The notes beneath the pieces are model-generated. The model was not told the origin of the DNA. It did no database searches and saw only the letters and a list, made by a program, of their open reading frames with translations. 64,000 nucleotides of DNA, from assembly GCA_965217895.1 (NCBI GenBank), contig CBDCJV010000002.1, positions 1,728,001 to 1,792,000 of the forward strand. Direction: 5' to 3'. Positions 5,401 through 51,549 of the stretch are shown in pieces (within the stretch, counting starts at the first letter, position 1; each line of letters opens with the position of its first letter). The translations under genes were made by a program, and so were the position numbers. The stretch is from Waterburya sp. (lineage in GTDB: Bacteria; Cyanobacteriota; Cyanobacteriia; Cyanobacteriales; Xenococcaceae).

Positions 5401-5442
5401 ACGGCACTCAATACGGCGACGCAGGTTCGCCGTCCGTACCTC
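5401..5442 (-). repeat. 42-bp hairpin micro-element (GAGG...CCGT family)
   Basis: Removing it restores transposase codons W-H-W-V-K-D; related to 51442-51486. Confidence 0.8.
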
Positions 5443-5489
5443 CCCAATGCCAACGATTCTCGATACCCCAATGTCGGCCAATACCTTGG

Positions 5490-5863
5490 GGAATAAGCCA
5501 AGAAGTTGCTGTTCACAAGTAGCAGTAGCGCAGCCTGGAGGCTGCCGACGTTGCTCCGCAACGGCTAGACGCGAAGCGCGTCTGCAAGTTCAACCTCTGC
5601 CACAGCAAGCAAAGCTTGCAAAGTCGTCGAAGACGACGACATGGAGCGATAGCTCCTGTGTCAGACAAAGGGCTTGCCCGCATGTATTCAAGAGTTGAAT
5701 TATTTTTTCACCTTTTCCTCATCAATGAAGAGGCTGCATATCCAACTTCGGAGTTTTTCTTAATTGCTATCTGCTATTTGCACACGCTGGAGCGTGTCGC
5801 CATCGCGAAGCGATGTCGGCGTTCTCCAGAACGCGCTACTTGCTACTTAACTCCGAAGGAGTT
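5490..5863. repeat. Composite array of short GC-rich hairpins and STRR heptamers inside the ISAs1 transposase
   Basis: About ten 5-7 bp stems with 3-4 nt loops (TGGA, GAA, TCC, AAA, GATA), flanked by AAGTAGC/AAATAGC heptamers. Confidence 0.85.
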
Positions 5864-6651
5864 GGGTAAAGAACTAATGTAATAAGTAGCCGAATCCGAT
5901 TCATAATTATGATTACCTCTAATTCCCGAACGGAAAATCTTAATCACACTATAAACTCCAATCCAGCAAGAATTAAGATTTAGTGGAGGCTCAAATACTT
6001 CTACAGTTCGATGAGTTAGTCTGTTTCTAGTTTTTTCCGACTGCTTAAAGCGACGAATCGCAGTCTTATTGAGTGTTTGAAATTCTATTAGAGAAATGCA
6101 ATATCTTTCTCACTTTGTTTCTTATTTTCCCTAACTTTTATGCCTAAAATTTCCCCGCCTTCATGAGTCAAAGCCGAAACCATCATGACGAAGTTTTGCT
6201 GTTGTCCATAACAGTCGTTGACAGTATTTTTCAAACTTTTGCCATCAATTGCAATCCATTGACCTTGACTATTGTGAGTATACTGAGATGCCCATTCATT
6301 AAATACTTGAGTTACTGCCTCATAGTCTAAGCTCATCATTACCCTTCTCATTGTCGAATAAGATGGAACTCTAGCTTGTGGGATTTTGAGCGTTTCAATT
6401 AATTGACGGCGATGCCGTTCGACAAATCTGCCCAAACCTCGATATCCCCAATAACCGCTCATTATGCCTAAAATCGTTATCAATAATATCAGCCACAAAG
6501 AATGCCTTCGACCACCTGCTTTTCGCTCATCAGGTATTTGTTTCAAATAGTCAATTAAGCTTTTATCAAAGTTTTTTAAAGTCATTGAGCGGTTAAATTA
6601 GGTTTTATATCAATTTACCGCACTTTAGCTTTAGAATGAAACAGCCCTACC

Positions 6652-7273
6652 AGGTGTTGGGGGTAAAAGCACTTCCCCTTCGGTAGAGATTGGTCTTCAA
6701 TCCGAAAAGCGGGGATAAAAGCGGTTCTGACTGGAAGTCTAATCTGGTTCACCGCAAGCAAGAAACCCATGGGTAGCGAAAGCAAAGTATCCTCAAATTC
6801 CGTTACAAACAAATAGCCCAAAAGACTGATAGGCTATTGCCAAAAGGCAACAGGGCAAAACAACAGACATTAAAATATCATCTTTTAATGTTCAACATCC
6901 AAAACCCTCGGAACATAGGATTAGTAAACATCGTTAGTCTGAAACAGCAAAAATAGACTATTGGCTGTAGCCAAAAGGCAATAAATCTAGCTGATTTATA
7001 ATTGTTTATTTCTAAATCCACACCAGCTATAGATTTCGGTGGAAGTTTACACCCTAAAGGTTCCAACCAACGGATATTCGGAACGAGGAAACCCCTCCAT
7101 AACTCTCAGCAATGGTCGAACTTGTTGAGTAGTCAATTAAGACGCAATATCTCTAGAAATAGAGGTTATAGAGGGAGTAGGATTCGGTAAAAAGCTAATG
7201 CTCGTATGTAATGTATGAGATATGCCCACGTACCGACTGTAATTAGGAAGATAGTGAACAAGTAAGCGTAAAT
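6652..7273 (+). ncRNA. Group II intron ribozyme 5' part (DI-DIII), relic
   Basis: Directly upstream of the RT ORF; motifs GGGTAGCGAAAG..GTATCCTC, GGAACGAGGAAACCCC and GGAGTAGGAT..AAAAAGCTAATG resemble cyanobacterial chloroplast-like introns; boundaries uncertain. Confidence 0.6.
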
Positions 7274-8038
7274 ATGTCTAAAACTGATTTAAAACAATTA
7301 AATACAGTGGAATGGAACGAGATTGATTGGCGAAAAGTCGAGAAATCTGTTTTTAAGCTCCAAAAGCGAATCTATCAAGCCAGCAAAGATGACAATGTAC
7401 GAAAGTTAAGAAGGAACGTCCTCAAGGAGAATAAAAAATCTCTCTCCCTTATTAGATACGCAGACGATTTCTTGATTATCCATGAAAACCTGGACGTAAT
7501 TAAAACTTGTCAAGAATTAATAGGACAATGGCTCTTGGAAATAGGATTAGAACTCAATCAAGAAAAAACCAAAATTGCACATACCCTCAATAACTACGAG
7601 GATAACAAACCAGGGTTCGATTTCTTAGGGTTCAACATTAGACAATTCCCAGTAGGAAAATACCAATCAGGTAAGAATACCAACGGCGAAAATCTAGGGT
7701 TCAAAACGATTATCAAACCATCAAAAGAAAAGGTAAAAGAACATTACCGCAAGCTAGCCAATATAGTAGACAACCTTAAGGCTGCACCGCAGCACGCACT
7801 GATTTCAAAACTTAACCCAGTGATTAGAGGATGGTATAACTACTACAGAACAGTTTGCAGCAAAGAAACATATTCCAAAATGAATCAATTGCTGTTCTAC
7901 AAACTTATTAAATGGGGATATCAAAGACATTCTAACAAGAGTAAAACTTGGTCTAACAATAAATACTGGCACACAATTGGTATGAATAACTTAGTTAGTT
8001 GTTTCGGCTACTTGTTTTATCGTTTTACCCGTCGATAG
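7274..8038 (+). pseudogene. Group II intron reverse transcriptase/maturase, internally deleted and 3'-truncated
   Basis: N-terminus WNEIDWRKVEKSVFKLQKRIY joined almost directly to LIRYADDF; GFDFLGF; maturase X domain LNPVIRGWYNYY; no endonuclease domain or DV/DVI seen. Confidence 0.9.
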
Positions 8039-8137
8039 CAACCAATATTACTTGGTAATGACGTTACTCGCATTACGATACCTGTTTAGTAGTTTTTGTG
8101 TGCTTAAATGCTGACTGAGAGAAAGTTTTTTTGGCAT
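7990..8137 (-). pseudogene. IS630-type transposase HTH N-terminal relic
   Basis: Frameshifted reading MPKKLSLSQHLSTQKLLNRYRNAS...WLLSTGKTIKQVAETT; upstream end GGCGTTGGTGAATC near 8276. Confidence 0.55.
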
Positions 8138-8318
8138 TACTACTTCATTTGAATGGATGCAGTTTTATTTCAATTGATTATCCGTACTTGATATTAGTAA
8201 AGGTTTCAGCCGTTGGCTTTTTTAATCCCGTAAAAAATTACAGTCTCAAAAAATCATACCTTGATTCACCAACGCCTACTATTCAATAAAATAATTTTGC
8301 CCACCCTATAAAACTGTT

Positions 8319-8819
8319 TTAATTGTCAACCTCCGTTGCTAATACCAAAGGCATTATTTCTGTAGCAGGAGAAAAGCTAATATTGTTAGTAATGCGATCG
8401 CGAATCAATTGAGCAATCATCTGGTTGAGACGATACATCTCTGGACAAGGATTATAGCGATATTTCACATCGACAATACGTTGTTTTTTGCGTGTAATGA
8501 CAGAAGAATTTTTCTTTTTTTCCTCTACTTGTTTACTGCGGTTACGCAGAAAAATATCGGGTTTTTCACTACTGTTTTTCACATCGGGTAAAGTTTCTAA
8601 TGCGGGATTTTGCCAATAGCCCCTGTAGTTTTCACTTTTAGGATTCTTGTATAGCTTAAAGCTGTCTATAGTCGGAATATATAAAGCATAAAATTCTCCT
8701 TCTTTAACTACATGAAAACATCCCCAGTCTTTTTCTTGTCGATTGAGTAAGATATCAAGAGTCAGTCCCAAAGACGGGAGATTATCAAGGTTAGTAGGAT
8801 AATTGTGATGGCTGTTCAT
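8319..8819 (-). CDS. Hypothetical protein
   Basis: 166-aa ATG ORF, no motif recognised. Confidence 0.6.
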   Translation of the reverse strand: MNSHHNYPTNLDNLPSLGLTLDILLNRQEKDWGCFHVVKEGEFYALYIPTIDSFKLYKNPKSENYRGYWQNPALETLPDVKNSSEKPDIFLRNRSKQVEEKKKNSSVITRKKQRIVDVKYRYNPCPEMYRLNQMIAQLIRDRITNNISFSPATEIMPLVLATEVDN

Positions 8820-8938
8820 AAACTTCAGAAATAAACTTCAAAATGTTTGTAGTATTGCCAATCAAACCAAGATATGGTCAATTGATTAAAGGCATAGTTT
8901 TATAAATTTTTTACAGGTATTAGCAAAACACTATAATC

Positions 8939-9463
8939 ATGGAGCTAAAGAAATTTCTAGATTTAAGTGAGGGAAGATGGTTTAGTCAGCGTACTAATTA
9001 TCTCTTAGGTGGGGACAAAGCAGACAACAGTAAAGCAGATATCACTATTGAAACCATCTCTGCTGATGATTTGCGAGCCGTTGAGCTATGTCAGAAACAT
9101 CATTTTGACCCTAATCTCATTATTGGTGGTACAGTGCAAAGCTGGGATAATTCTGTAGACTGGGGCAAAGACAAGCAGGTAGGCTCGGCAACTATAGTTT
9201 TGGTTAGTAACCCTGGTAGCGATCGCACTGGCAAAATAATTCGTCCTCAGGATGCTAAAGTATGCGGTCATTACGTTTTAGGCGCAGATGAAGCTTTAAC
9301 CTTGACCATTGAAAATGATCAAATGTACGCTGAAGAGCGTCAATGGTTTGCCAGCGATAACTTTAAAATGCGTACCACAGTTGTCAAATACCATGATGGC
9401 AGAAAACAAACCTCTTTCTATTCAGAAATTCGCAAAGCAGCACCCAAAGACAATGAGCAATGA
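8939..9463 (+). CDS. Phycobiliprotein lyase, CpcS/CpeS family
   Basis: SEGRWFSQRT, EERQWFASDNFKMRT, SFYSEIR signatures. Confidence 0.9.
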   Translation: MELKKFLDLSEGRWFSQRTNYLLGGDKADNSKADITIETISADDLRAVELCQKHHFDPNLIIGGTVQSWDNSVDWGKDKQVGSATIVLVSNPGSDRTGKIIRPQDAKVCGHYVLGADEALTLTIENDQMYAEERQWFASDNFKMRTTVVKYHDGRKQTSFYSEIRKAAPKDNEQ

Positions 9464-9550
9464 GCATCGAACAAATTGTAGGGTGGACATTTTAAGTTGA
9501 CTACAATAAGAATCGCTTATTTAACTAATGCCCACCAATCAGTAATTACA

Positions 9551-10198
9551 TTATCTTCTAGAATGTAGCTGGCGGTAGACATCACGGATATCGACGTTAT
9601 GATAAGCCAGAGCAACCAGGGTATGATAGAGTAAATCTGCTACTTCAGAGGCGATCGCCTTACTGTCATTATCTTTACAAGCCATGACTACTTCGGCTGA
9701 CTCTTCGCCAATTTTCTTGAGAATCTTATTATCTCCTCCTGCAAGCAAACTACAGGTATAAGAAGTCTCGCTGGGATGAGCTTGGCGATCGCGAATGACT
9801 CGGTATACTTCTGATAAGGTATCGGCTGGAGGAGCTTTTTTATTTTTGCTTTCGCCTACTTGATGGAAACAGCTTCGCTCTCCCGTATGGCAAGCAATAT
9901 CGCCTACCTGCTCAATAATAACGAGTAAAGCATCACTATCACAGTCATAACGTAATGACTGAACCTTTTGAATATGCCCCGAAGTTGCCCCTTTATGCCA
10001 CAATTCCTGACGCGATCGACTCCAATACCAGGCTTCTTTTGTTTCAAGGGTTTTTTGTAATGACTCCTTGTTCATCCACGCCAACATTAAAACCGTACCG
10101 TCAAGATAATCTTGAGCGATCGCAGGTACTAATCCCTGCTCGTTGTAGCGAATTTCATCCAGAGGAATATTGCAATTATTGATTGTGCTTGAGGACAT
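9551..10198 (-). CDS. hisIE: Bifunctional phosphoribosyl-AMP cyclohydrolase / phosphoribosyl-ATP pyrophosphatase
   Basis: [36 protein letters not shown]. Confidence 0.97.
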
Positions 10199-10199
10199 T

Positions 10200-10424
10200 A
10201 TTTATATTGTGCAAATTTATATTAGCTCAATTACTAAATTTGAACTTGAATACGGGTTACTCAAAAAGCCTAACTTAAGAAAACCGTTTGGAGGGCAAGT
10301 TGAAGACTTTTATATTGGCGCGATCGCACTACATCATAATTTTACCGTAGTCACAAGTAACATCAGGCATTTTGAGAAAATTCAAGGATTAGAGATTGTA
10401 AGTTGGAGAGTAGGCAATAGGTAA
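10200..10424 (+). pseudogene. PIN-domain (VapC) toxin fragment
   Basis: ISSITKFELEYG and DFYIGAIALHHNFTVVTSNIRHF; N-terminus and middle missing. Confidence 0.7.
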
Positions 10425-10529
10425 GTAGGTAGCCCTAGATTACTCTCCGCCTCACAAAGGTAGATTTTACATTCAATGGTTTTGACTGGCGAGGAGACGA
10501 GAAGCTTTGTTTAGTCAATTTAACGTCTA

Positions 10530-10790
10530 CTAGATTGAGTCTGGCATAATTTGTATCAATTCTCTTAAATTTAATAAAGCAGCTTCTAAAGATTCATCTC
10601 TCATTCTTTCATAACATTCAAGTAAAATTTCAGTTTTTCTCCAATCTTGCTCTGTTCTATTCTGGTTAATATTGATGTCCCAAATAATATCAGTTAACTC
10701 TCTAGCTCGTACCATTTGTTCTAGATTGTCAACAGCTTCAACAATCAACGAATATAATTGTTCTTTATCAGAATAATTTGACTTTGACAT
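10530..10790 (-). CDS. Hypothetical protein
   Basis: 86-aa ATG ORF, helical composition. Confidence 0.55.
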   Translation of the reverse strand: MSKSNYSDKEQLYSLIVEAVDNLEQMVRARELTDIIWDININQNRTEQDWRKTEILLECYERMRDESLEAALLNLRELIQIMPDSI

Positions 10791-11474
10791 AGTATTTTTT
10801 TTTCATGTTGGCGTATTTAATGTCAATTTTTTTAGCTACTTCAGGCAAATATTTATGGCAGTAATCTGTGACCTTTGGTCAAACCATTAACGAAAGGTAG
10901 GTTCACAGTTATGTTCCTCATCTTATTTGTCATCGGCAAAACTATTTGTGAAGTTGTAGTTAACGTTTTGTTTATTTTTTACAGCCTCCCCAATTGAAAT
11001 ATTGAGCAAGTCTGTCAACGAATTCATATATAAATATCTTCTCCTCTGTGGAGAAAATAAATTATTAATTCCTAAATCTCTTTCAAACAGCATATTTAGC
11101 GTGTTCTGCAGTTTATAGCTAGTTGAAGCTCAACTAGCTATATTGTCTCCTTCATAAACCCTTTATATAAACTTCATAAGAACTTTATAACCGCAAATGG
11201 GCAAAATGCCTAGTGAAAATACTTAAATTGCCGATTTTAAAATTAAGGTATTGAGGCAAAATGTCTGTATAACTACTTAAAGAGAGTATTTGACATTTTC
11301 AACTAAGCAAAAATTAATTCTTATCCTGCAGAACGAGGCTCTAGGCTCAAGTTTATGAACAAATTTGCGATCGCTAGTATTAGTGAGGCGGTATATGGGC
11401 ATTATTGGTGCTGCGATCGCTTCTACAGGCAGTAGTCATCTAAAGATTGTCACGCAAAAAAGCACAAATTCTAA

Positions 11475-11891
11475 ATGGATTCAGTATTTACCAAAATTAT
11501 CAAGGGTGAGTCCCCACCAGCTTTTCCGATTTGGGAAGACGAGCATTTCATTGCTATTCTTGTTCCTGAACCGATTAATCCTGGTCATACATTGCTTATA
11601 CCCAAAGAACAGATAGATTACATTTTTGATTTGCCAGAAGAACTTTATAATTCTATGTGGCAAATGGTCAAGTGGTTATCTTTGTATATTCAGCAGGCGA
11701 TGAAGTCTAAACGCATTGGTATTGCTGTAGAGGGTTTTGGTGTTCCTCATGTTCATATTCATCTTGTACCTGTAAATTCGGGCAATGAACTAAATCCTGA
11801 ACGAGCTAGTTTAGTTACTTCAGATGAATTAACAATAGTTCAAAACAAGATTCGTAAGCTAATTGATAATTGTGGCGTTGCTGAATTGTAA
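11475..11891 (+). CDS. HIT family nucleotide-binding protein
   Basis: GHTLLIPK and VPHVHIHLVP histidine triad. Confidence 0.95.
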   Translation: MDSVFTKIIKGESPPAFPIWEDEHFIAILVPEPINPGHTLLIPKEQIDYIFDLPEELYNSMWQMVKWLSLYIQQAMKSKRIGIAVEGFGVPHVHIHLVPVNSGNELNPERASLVTSDELTIVQNKIRKLIDNCGVAEL

Positions 11892-11920
11892 TGCTATTGA
11901 GCGATTTTTTATCTCTTTCA

Positions 11921-11952
11921 CAAGAAGCTTGAAGATTGCAAGCTTCTTTTTT
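11921..11952. terminator. Probable intrinsic terminator between convergent genes
   Basis: AAGAAGCTTG-aagattg-CAAGCTTCTT followed by a T-run. Confidence 0.6.
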
Positions 11953-11954
11953 AA

Positions 11955-13781
11955 TCAGAGAAAATTATAGTCTAGAGAAAAATAAATCCCATCTTCCTGT
12001 AGAGAATTGCCTTTAGTCTTGACATTGACTAAAGGAATACCCCAGTCTAAACGGGCATTAAAATTAGTGCCAGTAGAAAAGTTCAAGCCAACTCCTATAG
12101 AAGGTAAAGCCGAATTGCTAACCTCAAGATCGTCGCTGTTCCAAACCGTGCCAAAGTCAAAGAAAGGGGCAATTTGAACTATACCATCAATCTTTTTAAA
12201 ATGTAATATAGGTATTCTTAACTCTGCCGAGGTAAATATACCATTGTCTCCTAAAATCAAGTCTTGGCGATAGCCTCTGGCACTATTGACACCACCTACC
12301 CTAAACTGTTCAAAAGGTACTAAAGCACCTCCTGATAACTGAATATCTCCTCGCAGCAGAAAGAGAAAATTTTCACCAAGTTTTCTTACCCATTGGCTTT
12401 GTCCACGCCAAGCAAAAAAGGTACTGTCGGGTTCGCCATCATCATTAATTGTGGCATTAAGAGCATCTACGCCAAAGCTAAATTGCGATCGCAACGCTAA
12501 AACTTTTTGGTCATTGCGATTAACATATTCTTGAAATAATCTAATTGCACTAATTTTTGTTTCCCCATCTTTATCGGCACCACGAGATAGCTGGAAATCT
12601 TTATTCTGTAATGAAATCTCACTTTCAGTACGAGAAAGACTCAAGCCAACGGCAAATTCTTGGTTAGGTTTAAGTATTAAAGGCTGGCGCAAATTTAACT
12701 CGTAATAACGGGATTTTGACTGAATATCTAAGACATTGAAAGGTTCTTCAATAACGTCATTAGAGTTGATCCCAAATTCTGCCTTAATCGTACCGTTTTT
12801 GGAATTTATAGGTAGGGCATAAGCCAGATCAAAACTATTGCTACCGCTAGTATTGGTGTAATTAAAGTCGAAGCGATCGCCAAATCCTAACAAATTACCG
12901 TGGTTCAAACCTACCGAACGTTGGTTTGAGCCGACGCTAGGAGATCTATTATTATTAAAACTAGTGGAAATATTAAATACGTCTGCTTCAGTAATCTTAA
13001 TATCTAGCAAGCTTGTTCCTGGACGAATTCCTGCCGATAGTTCGGCTGAAACATTTTTGATTAAAGGATCGAGACGGAGTAGCTGTAAAGCAGACAAAAG
13101 AGACTCCACATTAACTGGCGTACCAGCAGCAGCTTCAATTCGAGAAGAAATATATTTGTCCGACAGATGTTTTGTACCAGAAACGTTAATTCCTTCCAAT
13201 TTTCCTTCTAAAACGGCAATTTTCACCGTGCCATTATTTAGTTCTTGAGGCGGAATATAAGCACCTGAATTGACGTACCCTTTGTCAGTATAAAGCTTTG
13301 TAATTGTACTGCGGGCTTGAAATAGCTCTGGCAGAGTTAAAGGGCGATCGCAATAAGATTTAATCGCTTTATTTAGCTCTTGTTGACTAAATACACTACT
13401 GCCAACTACCTGAAATTTCTTGACGACAATTTGTTTTGGAACATTAGATTTTTTAGCAGTAAATGATTCTTGATTGTTAAGCTTAGGTGATGTCTGGGCT
13501 TGAGATAGCAAAGAGGATAAATCACCAGCAGTTTTTTGAGGATCGCTTTCTAATGCCTTGGTTGTCTGCTCTTGCTTTAGTAAGGAAACTGTCAGAAGTT
13601 CTGAACTATCTTTTGTGACTCTTGGAGTTGAAGTGAGTTCAACTGCATTTGCCGATCGCAATCCTGTCAAGGTTGCTATCGAAGTTATGAGAAAAACTGA
13701 TAAACAAGAAGTAAATAGACCTGTATTCCTGGGATTAACTAGACTTAATCTTAAATGCCTCAAGGTATCTGGAGTAAACAT
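11955..13781 (-). CDS. ShlB/FhaC/HecB family (TpsB) outer-membrane transporter
   Basis: POTRA motif ITKLYTDKGY, barrel motif ARGY, LDWGIPL, C-terminal aromatic YNFL. Confidence 0.92.
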   Translation of the reverse strand: MFTPDTLRHLRLSLVNPRNTGLFTSCLSVFLITSIATLTGLRSANAVELTSTPRVTKDSSELLTVSLLKQEQTTKALESDPQKTAGDLSSLLSQAQTSPKLNNQESFTAKKSNVPKQIVVKKFQVVGSSVFSQQELNKAIKSYCDRPLTLPELFQARSTITKLYTDKGYVNSGAYIPPQELNNGTVKIAVLEGKLEGINVSGTKHLSDKYISSRIEAAAGTPVNVESLLSALQLLRLDPLIKNVSAELSAGIRPGTSLLDIKITEADVFNISTSFNNNRSPSVGSNQRSVGLNHGNLLGFGDRFDFNYTNTSGSNSFDLAYALPINSKNGTIKAEFGINSNDVIEEPFNVLDIQSKSRYYELNLRQPLILKPNQEFAVGLSLSRTESEISLQNKDFQLSRGADKDGETKISAIRLFQEYVNRNDQKVLALRSQFSFGVDALNATINDDGEPDSTFFAWRGQSQWVRKLGENFLFLLRGDIQLSGGALVPFEQFRVGGVNSARGYRQDLILGDNGIFTSAELRIPILHFKKIDGIVQIAPFFDFGTVWNSDDLEVSNSALPSIGVGLNFSTGTNFNARLDWGIPLVNVKTKGNSLQEDGIYFSLDYNFL

Positions 13782-13907
13782 ATTTATAGGTATGTTTTAG
13801 GAGAGCCGTTGCCCTAACATTCCCCAAAATACGTAGCAAATAACTTCAAAGAGCAAAAAAATTGTAAAATACACGGAGGAGCGAGTAAAGGTTATGGTTG
13901 CAAATAC

Positions 13908-15015
13908 TTACTGTTTAATCTGATAGCGCATTCCTGGTAGCTGAGAAATGAGATCCATTATTTCTAATTGAGACAAAATTGCCAAAATTTTACTGGTATT
14001 TAATTCTGTTTGTTCAGCGATCGCATCTAACGATATTGATTCATGAGTGAGCAAACTATAAATTTTTTCTAGTTCTGGTTCTAAATTGGGTATTGATTTA
14101 GGGATAGACGAGATACGATCTAAACAGGGCATTGTCCCCAGCATTTCTAGTAGGTGTTCGATGCTCAAAATGACGTGCGCCCCAGAATTAAGCAAACCTA
14201 AGCAGCCTAAAGATTGGCTATTATCTAAAGAGCCAGGTAATACATATACATCACGACCAAAATCATTGGCAAAGCGAGCCGTAATTAATGCTCCTGAACG
14301 TTCAGGAGCTTCGATGATGATTTACAGCCCGACATAAACCAGCAATGATGCGATTGCGTGCAGGAAAATGGTTGCGATCTGGCTTAGTTTGGGCTGGGTA
14401 TTCACTAACGATTAAGCCTTGAGTTTTTAAACGTTGATACAAAGAGCGATTACTGTAAGGATAAATTGTATCAACTCCTGTACCTAAGACAGCGATAGTT
14501 CTGCCGTTAGCTTCTAAGCAACTATGATGAGCTACTGCGTCAATCCCTGCTGCCATACCTGAAACAATACCAACACCATGATTTACCAAAGCTTGAGTAA
14601 TTTTATTAGTCCAGCGTTTACCGTATTCAGTCGGATTACGAGTGCCGACAATAGCGATCATTGGCTTAATGCCTTGATTTTCGGTAGAATCAACTACACC
14701 TAAGTAATATAGTAATGGTGGCGGACTAGGGGTTTCTAAAAGCAGTCTGGGATATGCTGCTTCTGCTGGAATCCAAAACTGAGGATTTTGCTTCTTATGT
14801 TCAGATATAAGTTCTACTGAATCAAATTTTGCTCGTCCCTGGTTTAAAGCATTAAAAAACTGACCACTCAAGCCGTCAATCTCGCCAAAAGCGATCGCTG
14901 GGGCGTGCCAAGCTTCTTTGAGAGAACCAAAATGCTGATAAACCTTTTTTAAAGAAACCGCCCCAATCCCCTTAATTTGTGACCACGCCAACCAGTAAGC
15001 TTGTTCTTGTTCCAT
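13908..15015 (-). pseudogene. dprA: DNA-processing protein DprA, frameshifted
   Basis: AIVGTR, VSGMAAGID, FPARNRIIAGL, then one extra A near 14322; the other frame continues IIEAPERSGALITA to the C-terminal winged helix. Confidence 0.9.
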
Positions 15016-15252
15016 AAAGTTTTAAAGTTTACTGATGCGATCGCTTTAGCAATTATTAACCAACGGTCACAAATTATTATTAATCGCCTTTTTTTGATTG
15101 TCAATTTATCAGTCAGGTTTTTGACAGCATCCTGACTGACAAAACTAGGCATTGTTGAATAATGAATAAGGATAAAAGCAAGTAATCTTTAGAGCTAAAA
15201 GCTAAAGGCTAAAAGCGAATAGCTTTTTTTGGTAATGATCGATTCAATTGAG

Positions 15253-40814: not shown

Positions 40815-41032
40815 TATCGCAGTACGTTGACTGGTTAGGACAGAAAAATGAACTGCTCGTAAGTAACAAGCGGTGCGACCCCCTAAAGGGTTCAGCAGTT
40901 TGCTTATGCCGGGGAACCCGTCCACCGCAACTGCTTCACCGCGTCGCCGTCAGGCGCAAGACAAAGGCTTTAGCCGCACGTACGCGCACCAAGACAGTAG
41001 CAAGTGTCCTAATATAAGTACGTATTGCTATA
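40815..41032. mobile_element. TA-bounded MITE carrying a 126-bp nested GC-rich insert (40870-40995)
   Basis: TATCGCAGTACG...CGTATTGCTATA; homologous to the inverted copy at 61296-61413. Confidence 0.85.
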
Positions 41033-41184
41033 TATCCAATCTAGATAGTTAACCCAACGAAGCATAGTGGCAGTCGTGTCTGTCTGTCTGTCCTATATAC
41101 CACGATCTAAACTGTCTTTAAATTAAATTTAACCTGAGTATTTGCAGCTTAAATCCGAGTTAAATTAATTAACAAAAAAGCGTT

Positions 41185-42900: not shown

Positions 42901-42966
42901 AATAGCAATTTAAAATATTGTGTTGATATTGTGTTGGTAAATTTTACTATGTTCTAAGTTTTAATT

Positions 42967-43018
42967 ATTGATAAAATAGTTTCATATGTGATATACGATG
43001 GTTTTTAAACTATTGATT
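42967..43018 (-). promoter_or_regulatory. Putative LysR (NdhR/CcmR) operator upstream of bicA
   Basis: Minus strand ATCAATAG-tttaaaaa-CCAT ... TTATCAAT, resembling the ATAG-N8-CTAT box. Confidence 0.45.
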
Positions 43019-43151
43019 AAACACTATTGTTATTATTTTTCGATTGATTTAAATCTATATAAAACTGCACCCCAATCAAGTTTTAAAAGCAATCTTTACT
43101 GCTTGAATTTTTTAATCTCAAAAAGAAGGAAAGGTTATCAATCGACTATAG

Positions 43152-44006
43152 CTAATTATCGTTCCTGATAAAATTACGCTCGATCGCATCAGCTACACGA
43201 CAAACATCAAACATTTGGGCTACATCATGAACTCTCAAGATATCTGCACCTCTGGCGATCGCACCATAGCAAGCAGCAGCCGTACCCCATACCCTCTCTT
43301 GAGGCTCGTTTTGCTTGAGTATAGGACGCATAAAGCTTTTACGAGATACCCCGACCAAGAGTGGTAGATTCAGTGCTTTTAATTCAGTCAAACGCTGAAG
43401 TAATGCCAAACTTTGTGATGCAGTTTTAGCAAAGCCAATGCCAGGATCGATAATAATATTAGTCCGCTTAATACCACAGGAGATCGCTTTCGATGTCTGC
43501 GTTGCCAAAAATTCTGCTACTTCTGCCACCACATCTTGATATTGAGTCAAAGACTGCATTTTTTGGGGATTTCCGCGAATGTGCATCAAAACAATCGGTA
43601 CGTCTAATTGAGCTACGGTGGTCAACATCTGCCGATCGAGAGTTGCCCCTGATATATCATTGACCATATCTGCCCCTGCTGCGATCGCTCCAATGGCAAC
43701 AGTTGCTTTAGTAGTATCAACAGAAATAGGTATAGTTGATTCTTGGCGTAGCTGCTCAATTACAGGAATAACCCGCTCTAATTCCAATTCAACTGAAATA
43801 GCCTTCGCCTGAGGACGAGTAGATTCTCCACCAATATCAATAATATCTACTCCTTGAGCAATCATATTTCGAGCCTGCATCAGGGCAGATTCTAAGCTAT
43901 TAAACCTACCACCATCGCTAAAGCTATCGGGGGTAACGTTCAGAATACCCATCAAATAGGTTCTTTCTCCCCAGTTAAAATGGCGATCGCGAATTTTTAG
44001 AGTCAT
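43152..44006 (-). CDS. folP: Dihydropteroate synthase
   Basis: GILNVTPDSFSDGG, IGGESTRP, DPGIGF, SRKSF, LRVHDV. Confidence 0.97.
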   Translation of the reverse strand: MTLKIRDRHFNWGERTYLMGILNVTPDSFSDGGRFNSLESALMQARNMIAQGVDIIDIGGESTRPQAKAISVELELERVIPVIEQLRQESTIPISVDTTKATVAIGAIAAGADMVNDISGATLDRQMLTTVAQLDVPIVLMHIRGNPQKMQSLTQYQDVVAEVAEFLATQTSKAISCGIKRTNIIIDPGIGFAKTASQSLALLQRLTELKALNLPLLVGVSRKSFMRPILKQNEPQERVWGTAAACYGAIARGADILRVHDVAQMFDVCRVADAIERNFIRNDN

Positions 44007-44181
44007 AGCTAGTACGAGATATTAAATTCTACCAACAAATTTACTATTTCAAATGCTTTCTTTCGTGCAACTCCTCTGGTAGATTAATCCTAGTCCCAAA
44101 TTCTAAAGTTTATCTAATTTATCTTTAGACTTGGGTAATATTTATTAATTTATTTAACAAGCAATTAGGAGGAAAGTCGCA

Positions 44182-45381
44182 GTGGCTAAAAAGACCGTAG
44201 CGAGTTTAAGCGAAGCAGATGTCTCTGGAAAAAGAGTTTTAGTAAGAGCCGATTTTAATGTTCCTTTAGATGATAGTGGCAAGATTACAGACGATACTCG
44301 CATCAAAGCTGCATTACCCACAATTAAAGATCTGGTTGGTAAAGGCGGGAAAGTAATTTTATGTAGCCACATGGGTCGTCCCAAAGGAGAAGTTAAAGAA
44401 GAATTACGACTGACTTCTGTTGCTAAGAGACTGGGTGAGTTGTTGGAACAAGACGTTGCTAAGTGTGATGATTGCGTTGGCGATGCTGTAGCTTCTACTA
44501 TTGATGGTATGAGCAATGGTCAAGTTGTTCTTTTAGAAAACCTCCGTTTTCATAGTCAAGAAGAAGCAAATGACCCTGAATTTGCCAAACAGCTTGCTTC
44601 TAACGCCGATCTGTACGTTAACGAAGCATTTGGTACTGCTCACCGCGCTCATGCTTCTACTGAAGGGGTAACTCATTATCTAAGTCCTAGCGTTGCTGGT
44701 TATTTAATTGAAAAAGAATTAGATTATCTGCAAGATGCAGTTGACAACCCCAAGCGTCCCTTGGCTGCAATTATTGGCGGTTCAAAAGTCTCTAGTAAAA
44801 TTGGCGTAATTGATACTCTACTCGACAAGTGCGACAAGCTACTCATCGGTGGCGGGATGATATTTACTTTTTATAAAGCTCGTGGTCTTAGCGTTGGTAA
44901 TTCTTTAGTAGAAGAAGATAAGCTAGATCTAGCTAAGTCTTTAGAAGCTAAAGCTAAAGAGCAAGGCGTTGAACTACTATTGCCTACTGATGTTGTAATA
45001 GCTGATAATTTTGCGCCTGATGCCAATGCTAAAACTGTAAGCATCAATGATATTCCCGATGGCTGGATGGGACTAGATATTGGTCCTGATTCAATTAAAG
45101 TATTTCAAGATGCTCTAGCTGACTGTAAGGCAGTAATTTGGAATGGTCCAATGGGCGTATTTGAATTCGATAAATTTGCTGCTGGTACTGAAGCGATCGC
45201 CCATACTTTGGCTGGTAAATCTGATGCTGTCACTATCATTGGTGGAGGTGATTCCGTTGCAGCAGTAGAAAAAGTTGGTGTAGCTGAAAAAATGAGCCAT
45301 ATTTCTACTGGTGGTGGTGCAAGTTTAGAGCTATTGGAAGGTAAAACTTTACCTGGTATTGTTGCTTTGGATGATGCTTAA
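44182..45381 (+). CDS. pgk: Phosphoglycerate kinase
   Basis: [32 protein letters not shown]. Confidence 0.98.
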
Positions 45382-45485
45382 ATTATTAAGCATTAAGCAT
45401 TAAGCATTTATTAGCCTGTAGATTGACTTATGTTGGTCTATGGGTGTTTTTTTATGGCATAAAGGTAAGAAAGTTAATTGATTGA

Positions 45486-47540
45486 ATGTACCGTACTAAT
45501 TTAGGCAAAGCCATATTGTTGATCGCAGGTATTCTTATTGCTGTAGCTTTTTATTCTTTTGGAAAAATTCAAGCTTATGAAAATATTAAATATATTTCTA
45601 TGAGTGAAAGAGTTGATGAGAATTTGGCTCTCGATCGCGAAGCCAAATCGGAAACTACTTCAAGCGATCGCTTGAGAGAATTGGCTGCTTTAAATGACGA
45701 TCTGGCGCAAATAGTAGCGAGCAATATTTCTGCACCTCCAGAATTACTAAAAGATTTAGCTTTTCATAAGAATCAAGCTGTCAGGAAAGCCGTTGTTAGA
45801 AACTCCAATACTCCGATAGAAACACTATTTATTTTAGGTGAATATTTCCCGCGAGATTTATTAAACAACCCAGTCTTTGAGTTTTTGACATTAGAAGATT
45901 TAAAATTCGTAGAAAAGATTTCTTCTGGTGCTATAGCTAGTCTAATTCAACAACCAAATGTCCCAGAATTTTTACTAAAGTATGCTGCTAGCCATAAAGA
46001 TAAAACAATAGCATATATGGCAAAAATGAGCGTAGCTATCTCAGGAGAAATGAATGAAGGATGGCATGAAGAAGCAGCAATTGTAATTCGAGAAACTCAT
46101 CTTAAATACGATATTCTCGATAATTATTTTGACGAGAAAGAAGTTAATAAATTCTTAGTATCTTCGGAATTGTTGCCTAATTTTCTTGAATTTATTCCTC
46201 CTGTTATTTTAAATAATTTGGAATTTAGAAGGAATCTAGGGAAAAATTCTAACGCAACGCCTAATTGGTTGAGACAACTGGCGAATGATTCTACTCGTTG
46301 GATTCGTAACGGTGTAGCAAAAAATCCTAATACCCCCTTAGATATATTAGAACTTTTGTCACGCGATCGCAATTATATGGTTCGTAGGGATGTGTTAGAA
46401 AATACTAATACAACAGTAGAAATAGTAGAATCCCTTGCTAATGATTCCAGTACTGAAGTTCGTAGCGGTGTAGCGAAAAATCATAAAACACCGACATATA
46501 AACTAAAATTACTTGCTGGCGATCCAAGTGAGCAAGTTCGTATGCAGGTAGCAGCAAATCCGAATACACCAGCAGCCAAACTTGAATTATTAGCTAATGA
46601 CGAAGATCCAACGGTTAGTCAGCTTGCTGCAAAAAACCCAAATACACCAGATAAAATACTAGAGTCTTTAGCTAAAGACTCTAGCGAAGACAAGCGCGGA
46701 TACATAGCAGAAAATATTGGTACACCCATAAGTATTCTTGAATTACTTGCTACTGATTCCGATCATTGGGTTCGCTATTATGTAGCAACAAATCCTAATA
46801 CACCATTAAATATACTAAAATCACTTGCTACCGATTCTGACAATTCAGTTCGTAGTGGCGTAGCGAAAAACCCGAATACATCTCTTGATATACTAGAATT
46901 TCTTGCTACTGACTCTACCAATTCCGATGTCCATAATTGGATTCACAAATCTTTAGCGGAAAATCCCAATGCATCGGCAAAAATCTTAAAATTTATTTCT
47001 ACTAATACCAATCCCTCTGTACGAGAAAATGTTGCCAGGAATCCTAATGCAACATCTGACATACTACAACTACTTGCTAAAGATTCTTTTGATATGGTTC
47101 GCTATTATGTAGCGGAAAATTCCAGTACATCATCAGAGATTTTGAAATTACTCGCCAATGATTCCAATATTTGGGTTCGTAGCAGCGTGGCGAAAAATCC
47201 GAATACAACTATCGAGACAATAGAAAAACTTGCTAATGATGCCGATAATTTAGTTCGCGAGTCTGTTTCGGCAAATCCTCAATGTACCCATAAAATAAAA
47301 GAAACTATTTTTAATAACTTTGCCAAATTGGAATATCCGTCTTTTAATCGTTTAACTTTTTTCCTAAGCGATTATGCAGAAAGCTTGGTTTTGGCTGAAA
47401 ATAGCAATTCTATCTCGTGGTTAGAAAGATATGCGATCGCCCAAAATGCCAAAACTCCAAAGGATACTCTCCAACAATTAGCCCAAGATGGCAATCGTAT
47501 TGTTCGTGCTACAGCAAAAGAAAGCTTAGAAAGATATTGA
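45486..47540 (+). CDS. HEAT/LRV-type solenoid repeat protein with N-terminal hydrophobic segment
   Basis: Many roughly 24-aa repeats VRxxVAxNPNTPxxILxxLAxD. Confidence 0.85.
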   Translation: MYRTNLGKAILLIAGILIAVAFYSFGKIQAYENIKYISMSERVDENLALDREAKSETTSSDRLRELAALNDDLAQIVASNISAPPELLKDLAFHKNQAVRKAVVRNSNTPIETLFILGEYFPRDLLNNPVFEFLTLEDLKFVEKISSGAIASLIQQPNVPEFLLKYAASHKDKTIAYMAKMSVAISGEMNEGWHEEAAIVIRETHLKYDILDNYFDEKEVNKFLVSSELLPNFLEFIPPVILNNLEFRRNLGKNSNATPNWLRQLANDSTRWIRNGVAKNPNTPLDILELLSRDRNYMVRRDVLENTNTTVEIVESLANDSSTEVRSGVAKNHKTPTYKLKLLAGDPSEQVRMQVAANPNTPAAKLELLANDEDPTVSQLAAKNPNTPDKILESLAKDSSEDKRGYIAENIGTPISILELLATDSDHWVRYYVATNPNTPLNILKSLATDSDNSVRSGVAKNPNTSLDILEFLATDSTNSDVHNWIHKSLAENPNASAKILKFISTNTNPSVRENVARNPNATSDILQLLAKDSFDMVRYYVAENSSTSSEILKLLANDSNIWVRSSVAKNPNTTIETIEKLANDADNLVRESVSANPQCTHKIKETIFNNFAKLEYPSFNRLTFFLSDYAESLVLAENSNSISWLERYAIAQNAKTPKDTLQQLAQDGNRIVRATAKESLERY

Positions 47541-47783
47541 TAACTAAAATAATATGCTGCTATGAATAAAACAGACAATAATTTCAGATTCGATTCCTTA
47601 TGCCATCTTTCATACTTTAGCAAGTAAGTCTGATATCGCTATCATCATTGATGGTGAAGACTACGTAGCTGAGGTAAATAATATAGCTTGTAGATAAAAA
47701 TGATTTTTCTACAGGCTTTTTTGATGGCGACATTTAAACATTGGGCGATTAGGATAGGAAGGGGAAATTAAAGGGTATGGGAA

Positions 47784-48926
47784 GTGAGCAGTTTCTGGGA
47801 TTCTATAAATATTGATTGGCTAAACTCGGAAATTGTGGAGGGGGATTTTCCTCTGCTAAAAGTTATTCTGGTAATTGTGGTCATAACCCTGGCACAAGTG
47901 TTAAGAAAGCTTTTTTCAGCAATTATTATCAAATACATAGAAGATTTAACCAGTCAGACAGAAACAGAATTAGATGATAAGTTGATTGCTATTCTCAAGC
48001 AGCCTCTAAACTGGCTTATTGTTATTGCTGGGGTTGGAGTTGCCAAGTTAATTATCGTTACTGAATTAAACTCAGCTATTAATAAAACTGCCGATAATAT
48101 AATTGGTTTGTTGGCGATCGCCACAGTTGCCTGGATTATTTTTCGTGCTTCTCCTTTGTTAGGTGAACTTTTAGGTAATTTAGCACTCGAAACAGAAACC
48201 GAACTAGATGATCTGGTTGTTCCTTATCTACCTAAACTTTTTCAAACTTTAGCTATAATCATTGTCTTACTCAAGACAGCAGAAGTCTTACTAGGTGCAT
48301 CAGCAGGAGCGTTAGTCGGTTTAATTGGTGGTACAGGTATTACTTTAGGGTTATTACTCAAAGATATTGTTTACGACTGGTTTTGCACCGTAATTATTTT
48401 TGCCGATCGCCTCTATGGCCTTGATGACATCTTAAAGGTTCAAGGAATAGATAAACTAGTACAGGTAAAGAATATTGGAGTCAGAAGCACCACCCTCTGC
48501 ATCTTAAGCCAAAATGCTTTAACTAAAATTCCCAACTCAAAAATGATTACGGGAATTGTGGAAAACTGGTCGCAAAATCCTGAACCGGAAAACCTCCTGG
48601 GTATTGATATTACCCTGAAGATCGACGATATTTCCTCAGAACAAACTGCCCTTATTTGTAATACTTTACGTCGCTTCCCTCAAGAAATTGAGTATTTGAG
48701 CAATCGCTTTACTGTCTGGTTTAGTGGTATGGAGCAAAATGCACGGATTATTAAAGTTCAGGCTTTTGCCCAAGTAGATAATCTCAAATCCTATAGTGCT
48801 GTTTGGGAAAAGATCAACTTAGGTATCTTAAAAGTGATGGAACAAGAAGGAATTGAACTGTTTTCTTCGACACCTTTTGCAATTCTGCCTGCTAAATCGC
48901 AAAAAGAAGTAGCGGTTAAGAATTAA
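47784..48926 (+). CDS. MscS-family mechanosensitive channel
   Basis: Multiple TMs, VKNIGVRST, IPNSKM. Confidence 0.9.
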   Translation: MSSFWDSINIDWLNSEIVEGDFPLLKVILVIVVITLAQVLRKLFSAIIIKYIEDLTSQTETELDDKLIAILKQPLNWLIVIAGVGVAKLIIVTELNSAINKTADNIIGLLAIATVAWIIFRASPLLGELLGNLALETETELDDLVVPYLPKLFQTLAIIIVLLKTAEVLLGASAGALVGLIGGTGITLGLLLKDIVYDWFCTVIIFADRLYGLDDILKVQGIDKLVQVKNIGVRSTTLCILSQNALTKIPNSKMITGIVENWSQNPEPENLLGIDITLKIDDISSEQTALICNTLRRFPQEIEYLSNRFTVWFSGMEQNARIIKVQAFAQVDNLKSYSAVWEKINLGILKVMEQEGIELFSSTPFAILPAKSQKEVAVKN

Positions 48927-49039
48927 GGATTTTGTTTTGATGTTTTGTCATTGAGTATATATTTTTATTTTCTAACTGAGATTTTGAAACGAAAGTTTCT
49001 ACAGTCTATTTTAGGCAATGAAAAAGAGCAGATTAATTC

Positions 49040-49255
49040 TAGTAGACGTAAAACTCCCAACGGCATACCATCCCCAAAGAAAATTTTTTAGCGATCGCCA
49101 ACAACTGTTTCAATACTACCGCCACCAATATTTATTACTAAAGCTTTGTCATCTCCTAAAGCGATTGAATTGCGGACAGCCAGAAAAATTAACCGCGCTT
49201 CTTCTTTTCCAGAAATAATCCTCAGACTAAGACCAGTTTGAGCTACTACCTCACT
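49040..49255 (-). pseudogene. Ppx/GppA exopolyphosphatase internal fragment
   Basis: Hand translation EVVAQTGLSLRIISGKEEARLIFLAV..LVINIGGGSIE..DR*..MPLGVLRL. Confidence 0.75.
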
Positions 49256-49300
49256 ACCATTAGGAAATTAATTGAAATGATTCCTTATAGTCATAAGATA

Positions 49301-50015
49301 ACGTGAATTCGGGATAAGAAAAAGGACAGGTAGTAAGCTGAAAATAACGACAAATTCAGTAAACCTGCCCTATGTTTAGTAAAGACAGAATTATTTTGCT
49401 CTGTTGACGATTTTTGTCTTGATTTTGAACCAGGTTGGAAACAACAGTTATTAACACAGGGAAAATGCCGTCTTCGTAATCGTCGATTAAGCTTGAGTGA
49501 AATTATGGCGGTGGGGGACGCTGCTTCGTAAGCAGCTTGTCCAACCACCGCGTTGACGATAGAAATAGCCTTTCATTTATCTGCTTATAAAAATTTCAAG
49601 ACATTTTACTGAGAAATTGTTAACCACTATTGGTGTCAAGCTTTCCCGCACTTGGTTAGTTACAACCGATTTGTGGAATGGCAACCAAGCACTTTAATTC
49701 CTTTGATGGCATACCTTCGCTCTGGCTTGGGAACAAGTACAGGAATCGGATTTATTGATTCTACCAGTATTAAAGTTTGTCAACACGGATGACCATGCTT
49801 GACAAACAGCTATTACGCAAAAGAGCTATAGTTGAATCTGTTATTGAACAGCTCAAACATATCAGTCAAATAGAACACTCACGTCATCGTTCCCCTGCTA
49901 ATTTTGTAGTTAATTTACTCTTAGGGCTTGATTGCTTATTGCCATCGTCCCCAAAAGCCATCTATTGCCGTTGATGACTTGATTTTGTCTGCTTCTGCTT
50001 AACCTGAACTCACGT
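49301..50015 (+). mobile_element. IS982-family element, internally deleted
   Basis: TIRs ACGTGAATTCGGG / CCTGAACTCACGT; flanks [57 protein letters not shown]. Confidence 0.9.
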
Positions 50016-50176
50016 TAAAATATTTGTTATGCTGTTAGTGAAATAAAATTACTACAATAACTATTAATTTCTAATGAGTTCATTAAATAGATTAATTAAG
50101 TCTGTGGTAATTGGCTTAATTGTCTTTTTATTTTCCAGTTTATTAATTATTGATCCTGTTAATGCCAAAAGTATTA

Positions 50177-51549
50177 TAGTCATTCTAAATAGGAAAAGTA
50201 TGAAACAATAGATAGAAGCTGAGAAATCGAGCGGGTGAGATGACTTATAGTGTAGATTTACGAAAGCGAGTCGTAGGCTTTGTAGCTTCAGGAGGCTCGA
50301 AAGCCGAAGCATCAAGAAGATATGAGGTGAGTCTATAGTGTGTAAATGATTGGTGTCAAAGAAAGGATTTAACTCCACCACCACAAAGTCGAAGAAAGCG
50401 AAAACTAGATTGGAAAGCACTCGCTCAACATATTCAAGAAAATCCAGATGCTTTGTTGAGGGAGCGGGCGCAACGTTTTGGAGTGCATACAAGTGCGATT
50501 GGATATGCTCAAAAGCAGATGAAATTGACTCGTAAAAAGCGGTGCGACCCCGCGGATTTCTAATCCGCTAGGGAACGCGCACCAAGACAAAACTCTAAAA
50601 TACAGCGAACGTAAGCATAGTCAACGAATTACTTTTCTGAGAAACTTACGCGAAATTGTGAGCTTAAGATGAATCGGGCTTTGAAGAATATATCTATCGT
50701 CCCTATGGCTGGTCAACAGCTTGGTTCTACATGGTCGGGAAACCCGACCGTAGCCCAAGCTCAAAACGGGGACAAAAAACTTATGGCGATCGCAATGGGA
50801 AAAGAGGGTCAAGAACCAGTCTAATAGCTGGAAAAAGCGCACCGCCTGCGAGTAAAGGGTTTCCTCAGCGTAAAGACGGAGCAAGCAGAGGCAGAGAATT
50901 ATTAGCACCGATTCTTTTTAGAGGAAGTACTAACGCTTTATGGTTTAATCGATGGCTCGAAGAACATCTAATTCCAGAATTGAAACCGAACTCTACTTTG
51001 ATTCTCGATAATGCAGCATTTCATCGAAAGGACGATGTGTTTCGCATCGCCGAACAAGCTGGTCATCAAATTTTGTTTTTACCACTTAATAAATGGGTTT
51101 AAAGCCCCGTCATTTATGACCGCGATCTTAGGGCGACGGCTAGTCGCCATCTCTGCCCTCGACAATAGCCCTTTGTTGGAAACCAACAAGACCGCTTTGT
51201 CTCGCAATCGCGGTGTTGACAATTGGGACTGGGGACTGGGGACTGGGTACGGAAATTTCTACGTAGCCGACGGCGGCTTTTTTGTATGAATCTTCACACA
51301 AAAAACGCGCCTTATTAATCCCTAATTCCCAATCCCTAGAATCACCGTTCCTTTTAGGGCGGTGAGCAGTCAACACCTTATTCCCCAGACTTTAATCGTA
51401 TCGAACAAGACTTCGCCATTCTTAAAAAAAGTCGTATTTATGAGGACACGGGTGGCGAATTCAATTCGCCACCGTGAGATGTCCGTTCCGCTCCAGATAT
51501 TTCCTTAGATGACATCGTTAAATCATACGGAAATTATTTGGAATGACTA
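50177..51549 (+). mobile_element. IS630-family element, degenerate, with multiple inserts
   Basis: TIRs TAGTCATTCTAAATA / TATTTGGAATGACTA with TA duplication; MTYSVDLRKRV, DESGF, LDNAAFH, LPPYSPDFNRIE. Confidence 0.92.
51083..51373 (+). mobile_element. Non-autonomous IS200/IS605-family mini-element
   Basis: Inserted 3' of TTAC without duplication, ends TCAA; left end AAATGGGTTTAAAGCCCCGTC, right hairpin CACCGTTCC-TTTT-AGGGCGGTG; excision restores LPPYSP. Confidence 0.85.

Follow-up and report, generated by a model that had tools for sequence, protein, structure and literature searches.

The 64,000-nt stretch of the Waterburya sp. genome analysed here (hereafter the window; G000:C2:1728001-1792000, in the two-contig genome G000 of 5.29 Mb and 39% GC) carries decayed insertion sequences (ISs) that are interrupted by short hairpin elements. 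The elements proved to be real insertions and to form a set of gene-less hairpin families with net lengths of 18-24 and 42-51 nt. In the 48-nt family D, a base flanking the target site covaries with the end of the element's terminal stem. What was directly observed is a constant length and fold, exact junctions that lack true target duplication, recent gain in related genomes and the target covariation of family D. The reading that we tentatively put first, with somewhat less than even confidence, is that these are gene-less micro-transposons moving as folded single-stranded DNA (ssDNA), cut and joined in trans by a putative Y1 HUH-like enzyme, as in IS200/IS605 elements and the transposases (RAYTs) associated with repetitive extragenic palindromes (REPs).

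Precise empty sites and lengths of the inserts

An earlier note on this DNA had proposed that full-length dead ISs carry short hairpin inserts whose removal restores transposase motifs. All six simple inserts were confirmed as real: each is present and folds, the reading frames of IS630, IS982 and ISAs1 are locally restored when the inserts are taken out, and relatives carry empty sites. The other genomes compared are designated G008, G017, G064 and G069, and loci are given L-numbers (L002, L003, L017, L038; L003 lies in G008 and L038 in G069). The IS630 of G008 lacks all four IS630 inserts as well as a large nested insert, the ISAs1 of G069 lacks exactly the 42-mer, and an IS982 contig in sequencing run X3 skips exactly 48 nt at 49505-49554. 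Comparison with IS relatives thus gave precise empty sites, so the segments are not parts of the ISs.

The insert in ISAs1 (5401-5442, + strand) is a 42-nt, family F-like element that starts with ACGG, ends with CCTC and has seven full copies, every one in the ISAs1 derivative. The inserts first placed at 49508 and 50717 were refined to 49507-49554 (- strand) and 50715-50762 (+ strand), and they belong to one family, D, on opposite strands despite sharing little sequence (60.2 and 64.8 bits with covariance model R1). The former contains an in-frame stop and its target base at -3 matches its own end; the latter has a mismatched -3 base, and its site is empty in L002, L003 and L017. The 5' stub of a second family D element lies at 49782-49787 (+ strand), where an IS982 deletion of approximately 300 nt starts, and D with the same first bases is found at this site in an IS982 subfamily of 72-83% identity. 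The family C element in a poly-A frameshift stretch of IS630 (50539-50589, - strand) corresponds to a gap of 51 nt in L003, not the 50 nt originally stated, and C elements with other tip hairpins occupy the same site in G017 and G069. The remaining five sizes stood as given; with this correction all six simple inserts, rather than five, are multiples of three. The family E element at 50836-50886 (- strand; 51 nt here) has family C-like ends and an altered tip hairpin, its site is empty in L003 and L017, and L002 carries a version with an intact tip. The 45-nt family F element at 51442-51486 (- strand) is missing from L002, L003 and L017 and has three relatives at unrelated sites. The nested segment described at 51121-51274 was resolved, from the sequence and partial R1 matches, into a decayed family D element (51118-51217, - strand) with a matching -3 base and a 51-nt element nested at its TT bulge, the whole lying inside a 291-bp insert.

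The 49507-49554 insert is identical (48/48) in IS982 copies (G000:C2:923006, 2565097 and 4512358) that are only 87.6% alike overall. The same copies differ 3 and 14 nt from the D junctions, a pattern of either repeated insertion or short-tract conversion.

Alignment of 2.0 Mb of G069 (100 pieces, approximately 38% of that genome) with G000 yielded 231 indels between 12 and 200 nt long, whose lengths peaked at 18 (26 indels), 21 (21), 24 (9), 45 (8), 48 (25) and 51 nt (12). Among distinct indels of 40-54 nt, 31 of 41 were multiples of three (p = 4e-8). An immobile origin, in which the hairpins would be local by-products of slippage or quasi-palindrome correction or else parts of the ISs, has practically no probability left. 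Quasi-palindrome inversion of tip loops does occur, yet the exact empty sites in relatives already refute this origin, the length classes are fixed, and identical or same-fold elements occupy more than 100 unrelated sites.

Families, folds and distribution

A descriptor combining pairing with the TT bulge gave 29 matches in G000, 28 of which had one anatomy. Family D consists of AAC, a 7-bp P1, T-(T/G), a 4-bp P2, A-(A/T), a 17-nt tip hairpin, P2', C, P1' and a final C, together 48 nt. In an alignment of 54 ungapped sequences, picked after a pairing filter, two-sided changes were present in 17 of the 18 pairs, and 94% of cells were paired versus 39-48% when the alignment was slid. Bulged T8, A14 and C37 were invariant among 120 distinct D elements. 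The earlier view that several structure-conserved families with compensatory stem changes exist was upheld by D and extended by families C, E, F, G, H and I (E to I measuring 42-51 nt). The same holds for the lack of terminal inverted repeats (TIRs) and of true target duplications, the ends being offset by unpaired leaders with at most 1-2 ambiguous bases.

Family D was present in 58 of 61 host-family genomes in a pattern search that made no pairing demand (0-2 matches per genome with the reversed pattern); a covariance-model search of 149 other genomes of the class found none. The closest searched relatives of G000 share 93-95% pgk identity with it, and named records with the same elements belong to Waterburya, Pleurocapsa, Hyella, Myxosarcina and related or unplaced metagenome-assembled genomes. 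Ten pattern matches were obtained in viral contigs, none of them with pairing.

Family C (51 nt; at 50539 and 40870 in the window) has a conserved core and varied outer arms. It was found patchily, in 40 of 201 genomes of the order, nearly unchanged between families, and also on three plasmids. The short families comprise 21-24-nt elements in HIP1-like sites and a net +18 family. Elements start with AAC (D), CAACG (H) or TGTCT (C). The 17-nt tip hairpins are common to several families and differ at one IS630 site in three species, and D tip loops occur in both orientations. Elements also lie inside one another, and whole composites of 93-144 nt behave as single polymorphic units. D cores with other end bases were observed at other fixed sites in G000 (inside family I and inside the HIP1 21-mer), which suggests that ends and targets shift together or that composites travel as units.

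Three further elements of the window belong to these families. The segment at 40870-40996 (- strand), described before as a nested insert ending at 40995, is a family C element of the 51-nt type with nested inserts, including a net +18 element at about 40961-40982 (+ strand); an orthologous empty site was looked for in relatives and none was found. A net +18 element of 21-22 nt, which overwrites 3-4 target bases, lies at 5665-5686 (+ strand; pattern match 5668-5685, family junctions from 45 filled/empty pairs), and a decayed family H element lies outside the IS relics at approximately 10830-10877 (- strand). At the gathering score, Rfam gave no match for the elements and only rRNAs and tRNAs in the window. 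Resemblances to tRNA (7-bp stem, T8, A14) and to group II intron ends were discarded as being without support or an Rfam match.

A target base that covaries with the terminal stem

The consensus target of family D is N'-T-C|A-A-W, where N' is identical to the 3' end of the element and complements position 2 of the terminal stem. In the first set of targets (147 copies from G000, the G069 pieces and 76 pattern matches, grouped into 62 clusters), the base at -3 was identical to the third-last base of the element, the partner of P1 position 2, in 46 clusters versus a permutation mean of 17.8 (0 of 5000 shuffles); there was no such match at -4 to -8. A second set was taken from fresh loci of other genomes, 55 of 70 of which contained D; after seven with known targets had been dropped, 42 new clusters were obtained. 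The -3 match recurred in 23 of these (13.5 expected, p = 0.0009), the -2 base matched in 34 (30.5 expected, p = 0.025), and nothing was seen at -4 to -8. Pooled, the -3 match was present in 69 of 104 clusters, with all four bases on the diagonal, the sites among kin genomes being not fully independent. The flank base at -3 was already in place in 26 of 27 empty alleles (25 of 26 in another count), which makes it a feature of the site selected and not a later change. Site choice by family D thus likely follows the base that covaries with the stem end, from which we infer the pairing itself. Five of 106 clusters showed independent insertion of different D subfamilies at one homologous site, and two or three of these cases are convincing.

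In family H, 30 targets gave T-N-A-C|T (T in 30, A in 28, C in 29 and T at +1 in 25 of 30), which is the element's own end. The junction of family C is C|T (14 and 16 of 19), and the 21-nt family inserts in GCG|ATCGC-type sites. A second pairing rule, which had appeared in the net +18 family, was rejected. Complementarity between its -2 flank base and the element end, seen in 31 of 40 clusters and again in 16 of 17 further ones, belongs to an internal stem pair. In 45 empty alleles, agreement amounted to 20, 14, 33 and 31 at -3, -2, -1 and +1 versus 37-44 outside, so these bases are part of the element, a 21-22-nt hairpin that overwrites 3-4 mostly purine target bases. The same empty-allele comparison left the D rule standing. 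There are therefore two junction types, and a single enzyme may not suffice for every family.

Routes of movement and the search for an enzyme

In the ssDNA route that we favour, an element would be peeled from one strand as a closed dumbbell, with the terminal stem shut by a junction loop of 4-6 nt. The 5' arm of this stem would serve as a guide that pairs either to the end of the element itself or to target DNA immediately 5' of the cleavage point. The element would then be pasted in by strand exchange, at C|A for D and at C|T for C, E and H, and become fixed through replication. Lengths in multiples of three would be kept because in-frame copies are tolerated in genes, and copies would pile up under weak selection and ride along with ISs, miniature inverted-repeat transposable elements (MITEs) and plasmids. 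In IS608, the tetranucleotide recognised as target remains on the left flank, where a guide carried by the element reads it through base pairing (PMC5934647). RAYTs cut at C|T and C|A, with the choice made by guide pairing (PMC8266576), and may release single-stranded circles (PMC8266576, PMC3333891). The site base that covaries with the D stem end favours an IS200/IS605-like ssDNA route over reverse transcriptase (RT) or RNA-guided options. Of the earlier proposal that the elements are mobilised as folded ssDNA or RNA, the folded single-stranded intermediate fits the data, with ssDNA favoured and the RT and RNA-guided enzymes disfavoured. A bolder claim, which we regard as possible but doubtful, is that D represents a class of DNA transposons of 48 nt with a single hairpin, much smaller than any transposon described, and that their terminal stem would be a programmable target guide for a putative ssDNA recombinase.

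Movement through RNA is unlikely. In this model, an RT such as that of a group II intron would copy a structured RNA, perhaps circular or carrying donor flanks, into the target at a nick, and the -3 match would arise from annealing of the cDNA end to the left flank. G000 contains eight RT loci, with three identical 516-aa copies, and a few C copies are short of 2-3 nt at the 5' end. The replacement of 3-4 purine-rich target bases by the net +18 family would also suit this route, as staggered nicking in target-primed reverse transcription can replace target bases. An RNA route has reportedly been proposed for the small dispersed repeats (SDRs) of Nostocaceae as well. Set against these points, D lengths are fixed with almost no 5' truncation, and the match follows the stem base from lineage to lineage, although one maintained by donor flanks alone would be lost over time. 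D in genes named by Pfam shows no sense bias (20 sense and 17 antisense by our own tally), its tip loops occur in either orientation, and G-N-A triloops are typical of DNA. Among 18 variants of the 21-nt HIP1 element, 17 carry such a loop; each of the four bases occurs at its middle position, and 15 are closed by C-G. GCGNAGC is a DNA mini-hairpin motif (PMC13037366). The G-N-A loops, the two-way tip loops and the lack of sense bias indirectly lean towards ssDNA over RNA.

A common host enzyme or another recombinase (type IA topoisomerase, a tyrosine or serine recombinase acting on folded ssDNA, or transformation-linked annealing) that inserts the elements by short homology, with routes differing by family, we consider fairly unlikely. 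No mobile enzyme tracks the elements, and family C, near-identical in distant families and on plasmids, implies that its mover is widespread. Two junction types exist, and both the tip hairpins swapped at one site among three species and the identical 48-mer in the 87.6% alike IS982 copies point to short-homology conversion. However, homology is limited to 3-5 nt at the junction, which is too short for RecA, and the strict structural conservation implies a dedicated binder. D is without the GTT partner of the attC R box, and no integron integrase scored above the cut-off: the best TIGR02249 score was 55 versus a cut-off of 265, and this candidate was rejected. G000 also encodes 10 tyrosine recombinases.

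Returning to ssDNA movement by a Y1 HUH-like enzyme, several observations weigh against it. D consists of one hairpin instead of distinct left and right ends, and it lacks a GTAG tag on the 5' side. The assignment of the folding strand rests on one conserved G.T pair, and elsewhere G.T was not above A.C (22 vs 32). The -3 rule is broken at 35 of 104 D sites, including 50715 in the window; family H showed no covariation at -3 (17 of 30 vs 17.2, with few variants) and family C no rule at -2 or -3. A clean HUH exchange would not overwrite target bases, as net +18 insertion does with 3-4 of them. Neither circles nor excision products were observed, circles being beyond what the sequencing-run contigs can show. 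No cognate enzyme was identified: D, C and net +18 elements flank none of 32 RAYT and 5 IS200-type loci in G000 and relatives, the RAYTs being flanked by GTAG REPs. RAYT subclass 2.4 (subclasses after PMC6006769) did not track family C (22 of 40 C-positive vs 79 of 161 C-negative genomes, p = 0.6) and is missing from the complete, element-rich G064, while IS200-type TnpA is missing from G000 and G069. Finally, the search for an autonomous partner came out empty: neither G000 nor the G069 pieces contain a gene lying between a pair of elements, and a split-element search gave nested cargo only.

The co-occurrence check proposed in the earlier note gave no association for RAYT genes and a weak, confounded one for TnpA genes. 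RAYTs were rejected as movers on account of their own GTAG REPs and the lack of co-occurrence. IS200-type TnpA was more frequent in C-positive than in C-negative genomes (36 of 40 vs 118 of 161, p = 0.035, confounded by mobile-DNA load) and was set aside on this weak association and its absence from the two richest complete genomes. The RAYTs of G000 comprise one intact subclass 2.4 gene, one broken copy and one frameshifted 2.2-type gene, all with GTAG REPs. The tandem subclass 2.4 genes, one of them intact and containing a GTAG REP, lie at G000:C2:3519192-3521286 (L232), and the frameshifted 2.2-type RAYT lies at G000:C2:2354797-2355325. Their REPs form a family with dozens of copies in the genome, and micro-elements have invaded it as well. 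Among other genes noted in this survey, two IS110-like open reading frames (ORFs; 410 and 442 aa) at G000:C2:2846614 and 3922469 gave weak PF02371 matches, and a regularly spaced repeat with unique spacers at about G000:C2:4496339-4496554 is CRISPR array-like.

Genomic positions of the elements

In G000, 263 matches were reduced to 151 distinct sites. Unique non-ORF DNA holds 83 of these, other small repeats 25, long repeats 21, ORFs 20 and heptamer repeats 2. The corresponding densities were approximately 73 (unique non-ORF), 890 (other small repeats), 237 (long repeats) and 5 (ORFs) distinct sites per Mb, these classes being script proxies (self-BLAST for repeats) and not gene or IS annotation. 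Long repeats are denser in sites than unique non-ORF DNA, but they hold few of the sites. Of 257 islands, 29 were inside open frames of at least 120 aa, with homologues including OprB, CobN/ChlH, a UvrD-like protein, YbeY and a PAS kinase. Among 68 scanned D flanks, 37 were named by Pfam, 14 as mobile-element genes and 23 as ordinary genes. In relatives (L217, L142, L216 and L173), D was observed in open frames of FNR-like, B3/4-domain (PheT-like), DinB-like and helicase genes, to which it adds 16 residues. There was no usable GC skew in G000, and element orientations were mixed.

The site pattern fits tolerance in dispensable DNA together with hitchhiking, and the threefold excess in long repeats may reflect a mild preference for them. 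That the elements are aimed at ISs, or kept to silence them, as the earlier note had suggested, is very unlikely. The higher density in long repeats, the share of mobile genes among the named D flanks (14 of 37) and the in-frame stops carried by some inserts speak for it. Nevertheless, long repeats, as defined by the self-BLAST proxy, hold only 21 of the 151 sites, the D target is a 5-nt motif that occurs anywhere, and in-frame copies are found in ordinary genes, from OprB, CobN/ChlH and UvrD-like to FNR-like, DinB-like and others. Damage is also minimised by lengths in multiples of three, and insert-bearing IS derivatives kept multiplying (7 ISAs1 copies and 4 IS982 copies with D).

Host relics and composite inserts in the window

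The hosts of these inserts are three relics that also bear stops, frameshifts or deletions independent of the hairpins. A non-autonomous ISAs1-family derivative at 5155-6652 (- strand; PF13808) carries two inserts, has seven further long genomic matches of 88-93% and has an insert-free relative in L038. The second of its inserts, a MITE-like composite of approximately 350 nt at 5505-5855 with small hairpins packed inside, was recognised from the gap against L038 and from its copies, its core being present in 10; the segment reported before at 5530-5834 is an insert, with boundaries that have to be widened to this larger unit (approximately 5505-5855). The IS982-family relic occupies 49299-50019 (+ strand; three copies at 87.6%, PF13612 on relatives) and the IS630-family relic 50240-51553 (+ strand; PF13358, insert-free relative L003). 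Inside the latter, the 291-bp MITE-like insert at 51083-51373 has terminal hairpins and contains nested elements and heptamer repeats; it is skipped as 291 nt at the joint in four sequencing runs and absent as a gap from L002, L003 and L017. A hairpin lies near each of its ends and the right end is TCAA-like, an anatomy similar to the ends of IS200/IS605 or IS607 elements; shorter versions occur in the same sample. A group II intron remnant with a truncated RT/maturase ORF (PF08388, PF00078) occupies 6660-8038, and a complete rRNA operon with two spacer tRNAs (51612-56875) lies directly next to the IS630 relic.

Comparison with known systems

How the smallest mobile repeats of bacteria, such as SDRs and untagged palindromic repeats, move has been a question since 2008. 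Family D offers a defined substrate, 48 nt long with invariant bases and an exact junction, and leads to the sharp prediction that stem pair 2 sets the -3 target base, so candidate enzymes can be screened with oligonucleotides. The elements add 16-17 codons in frame to ordinary genes outside Nostocaceae, nest in composite repeats and travel between cyanobacterial families on ISs and plasmids. If D were indeed a self-guiding class of 48 nt, its enzyme would explain SDR-type movement and give a minimal, scar-free insertion tool directed by base pairing. A literature search turned up neither these families nor the stem-to-target rule; the 2008 SDR paper of Elhai et al. and its supplements, which lay outside that search, may bear on the novelty.

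The families share with IS200/IS605 elements (IS608 and non-autonomous derivatives such as PATEs) the absence of duplication and a short target kept on the left flank, which applies to D, H and C and not to the net +18 family. D further resembles them in a target covariation consistent with a guide in the element (69 of 104) and in an irregular hairpin with a bulged T. Unlike them, one 44-nt D hairpin serves both ends without separate left and right subterminal hairpins, the guide is apparently the stem arm itself, no gene-enclosing pair turned up in G000 or the G069 pieces, and G000 and G069 have no IS200-type TnpA. REPs, with the mosaic elements and REPINs built from them, are likewise small folded repeats, and their RAYTs are trans-acting Y1 nucleases for which single-stranded circles have been proposed (PMC8266576, PMC3333891). 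The C|T (C, H) and C|A (D) junctions, where we infer the cleavage, agree with those cut by RAYTs. The present elements differ in having no GTAG tag, in flanking no RAYT, in lying often in frame in genes and in their clear filled/empty sites, and canonical GTAG REPs coexist in G000 as a separate family. Like MITEs, for instance the cyanobacterial Nezha, they are non-autonomous, dispersed and nested; unlike MITEs, they have no pair of TIRs and target-site duplications, conserve fold rather than sequence and are far shorter. Integron attC sites are comparable as structure-conserved, sequence-variable ssDNA hairpins with extrahelical bases, and D starts with AAC; D differs in having no GTT at the 3' foot, no cassette and no IntI above the cut-off.

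The SDRs come closest. In the SDR literature (PMC5861425, PMC4390886, PMC13756078, PMC2884548, PMC3116915, PMC3733652), SDR5 is a 21-nt repeat that inserts between bases 3 and 4 of HIP1, and no SDR-like repeat is reported outside Nostocaceae. The 21-nt family described here, and that family only, sits at the same position of HIP1. SDR1-8 of Nostocaceae (Elhai et al., 2008) are reportedly tiny repeats of 21-27 nt that carry no genes, show compensatory structure and are nested within one another as well as in minitransposons. To our knowledge, no stem-to-target base rule has been given for SDRs, a point on which that 2008 work may bear. The elements in the present study share the compensatory fold (17 of 18 pairs in D), the nesting in each other, in heptamer repeats and in minitransposons, and recent mobility. 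They differ in length, the six inserts measuring 42-51 nt and only the accompanying 21-24-nt families fitting SDR length, and in host, which is Xenococcaceae/Pleurocapsales and not Nostocaceae (D in 58 of 61 host-family genomes and 0 of 149 others of the class). The kind of element is thus a known one, that of the SDRs, and the 42-51-nt families fall outside SDRs by length and host range, and outside REPs, MITEs and attC sites. The earlier description of the inserts as larger relatives of SDRs is in line with these results: structure-conserved, nested and mobile, they share the traits attributed to SDRs and are set apart by length and host range.

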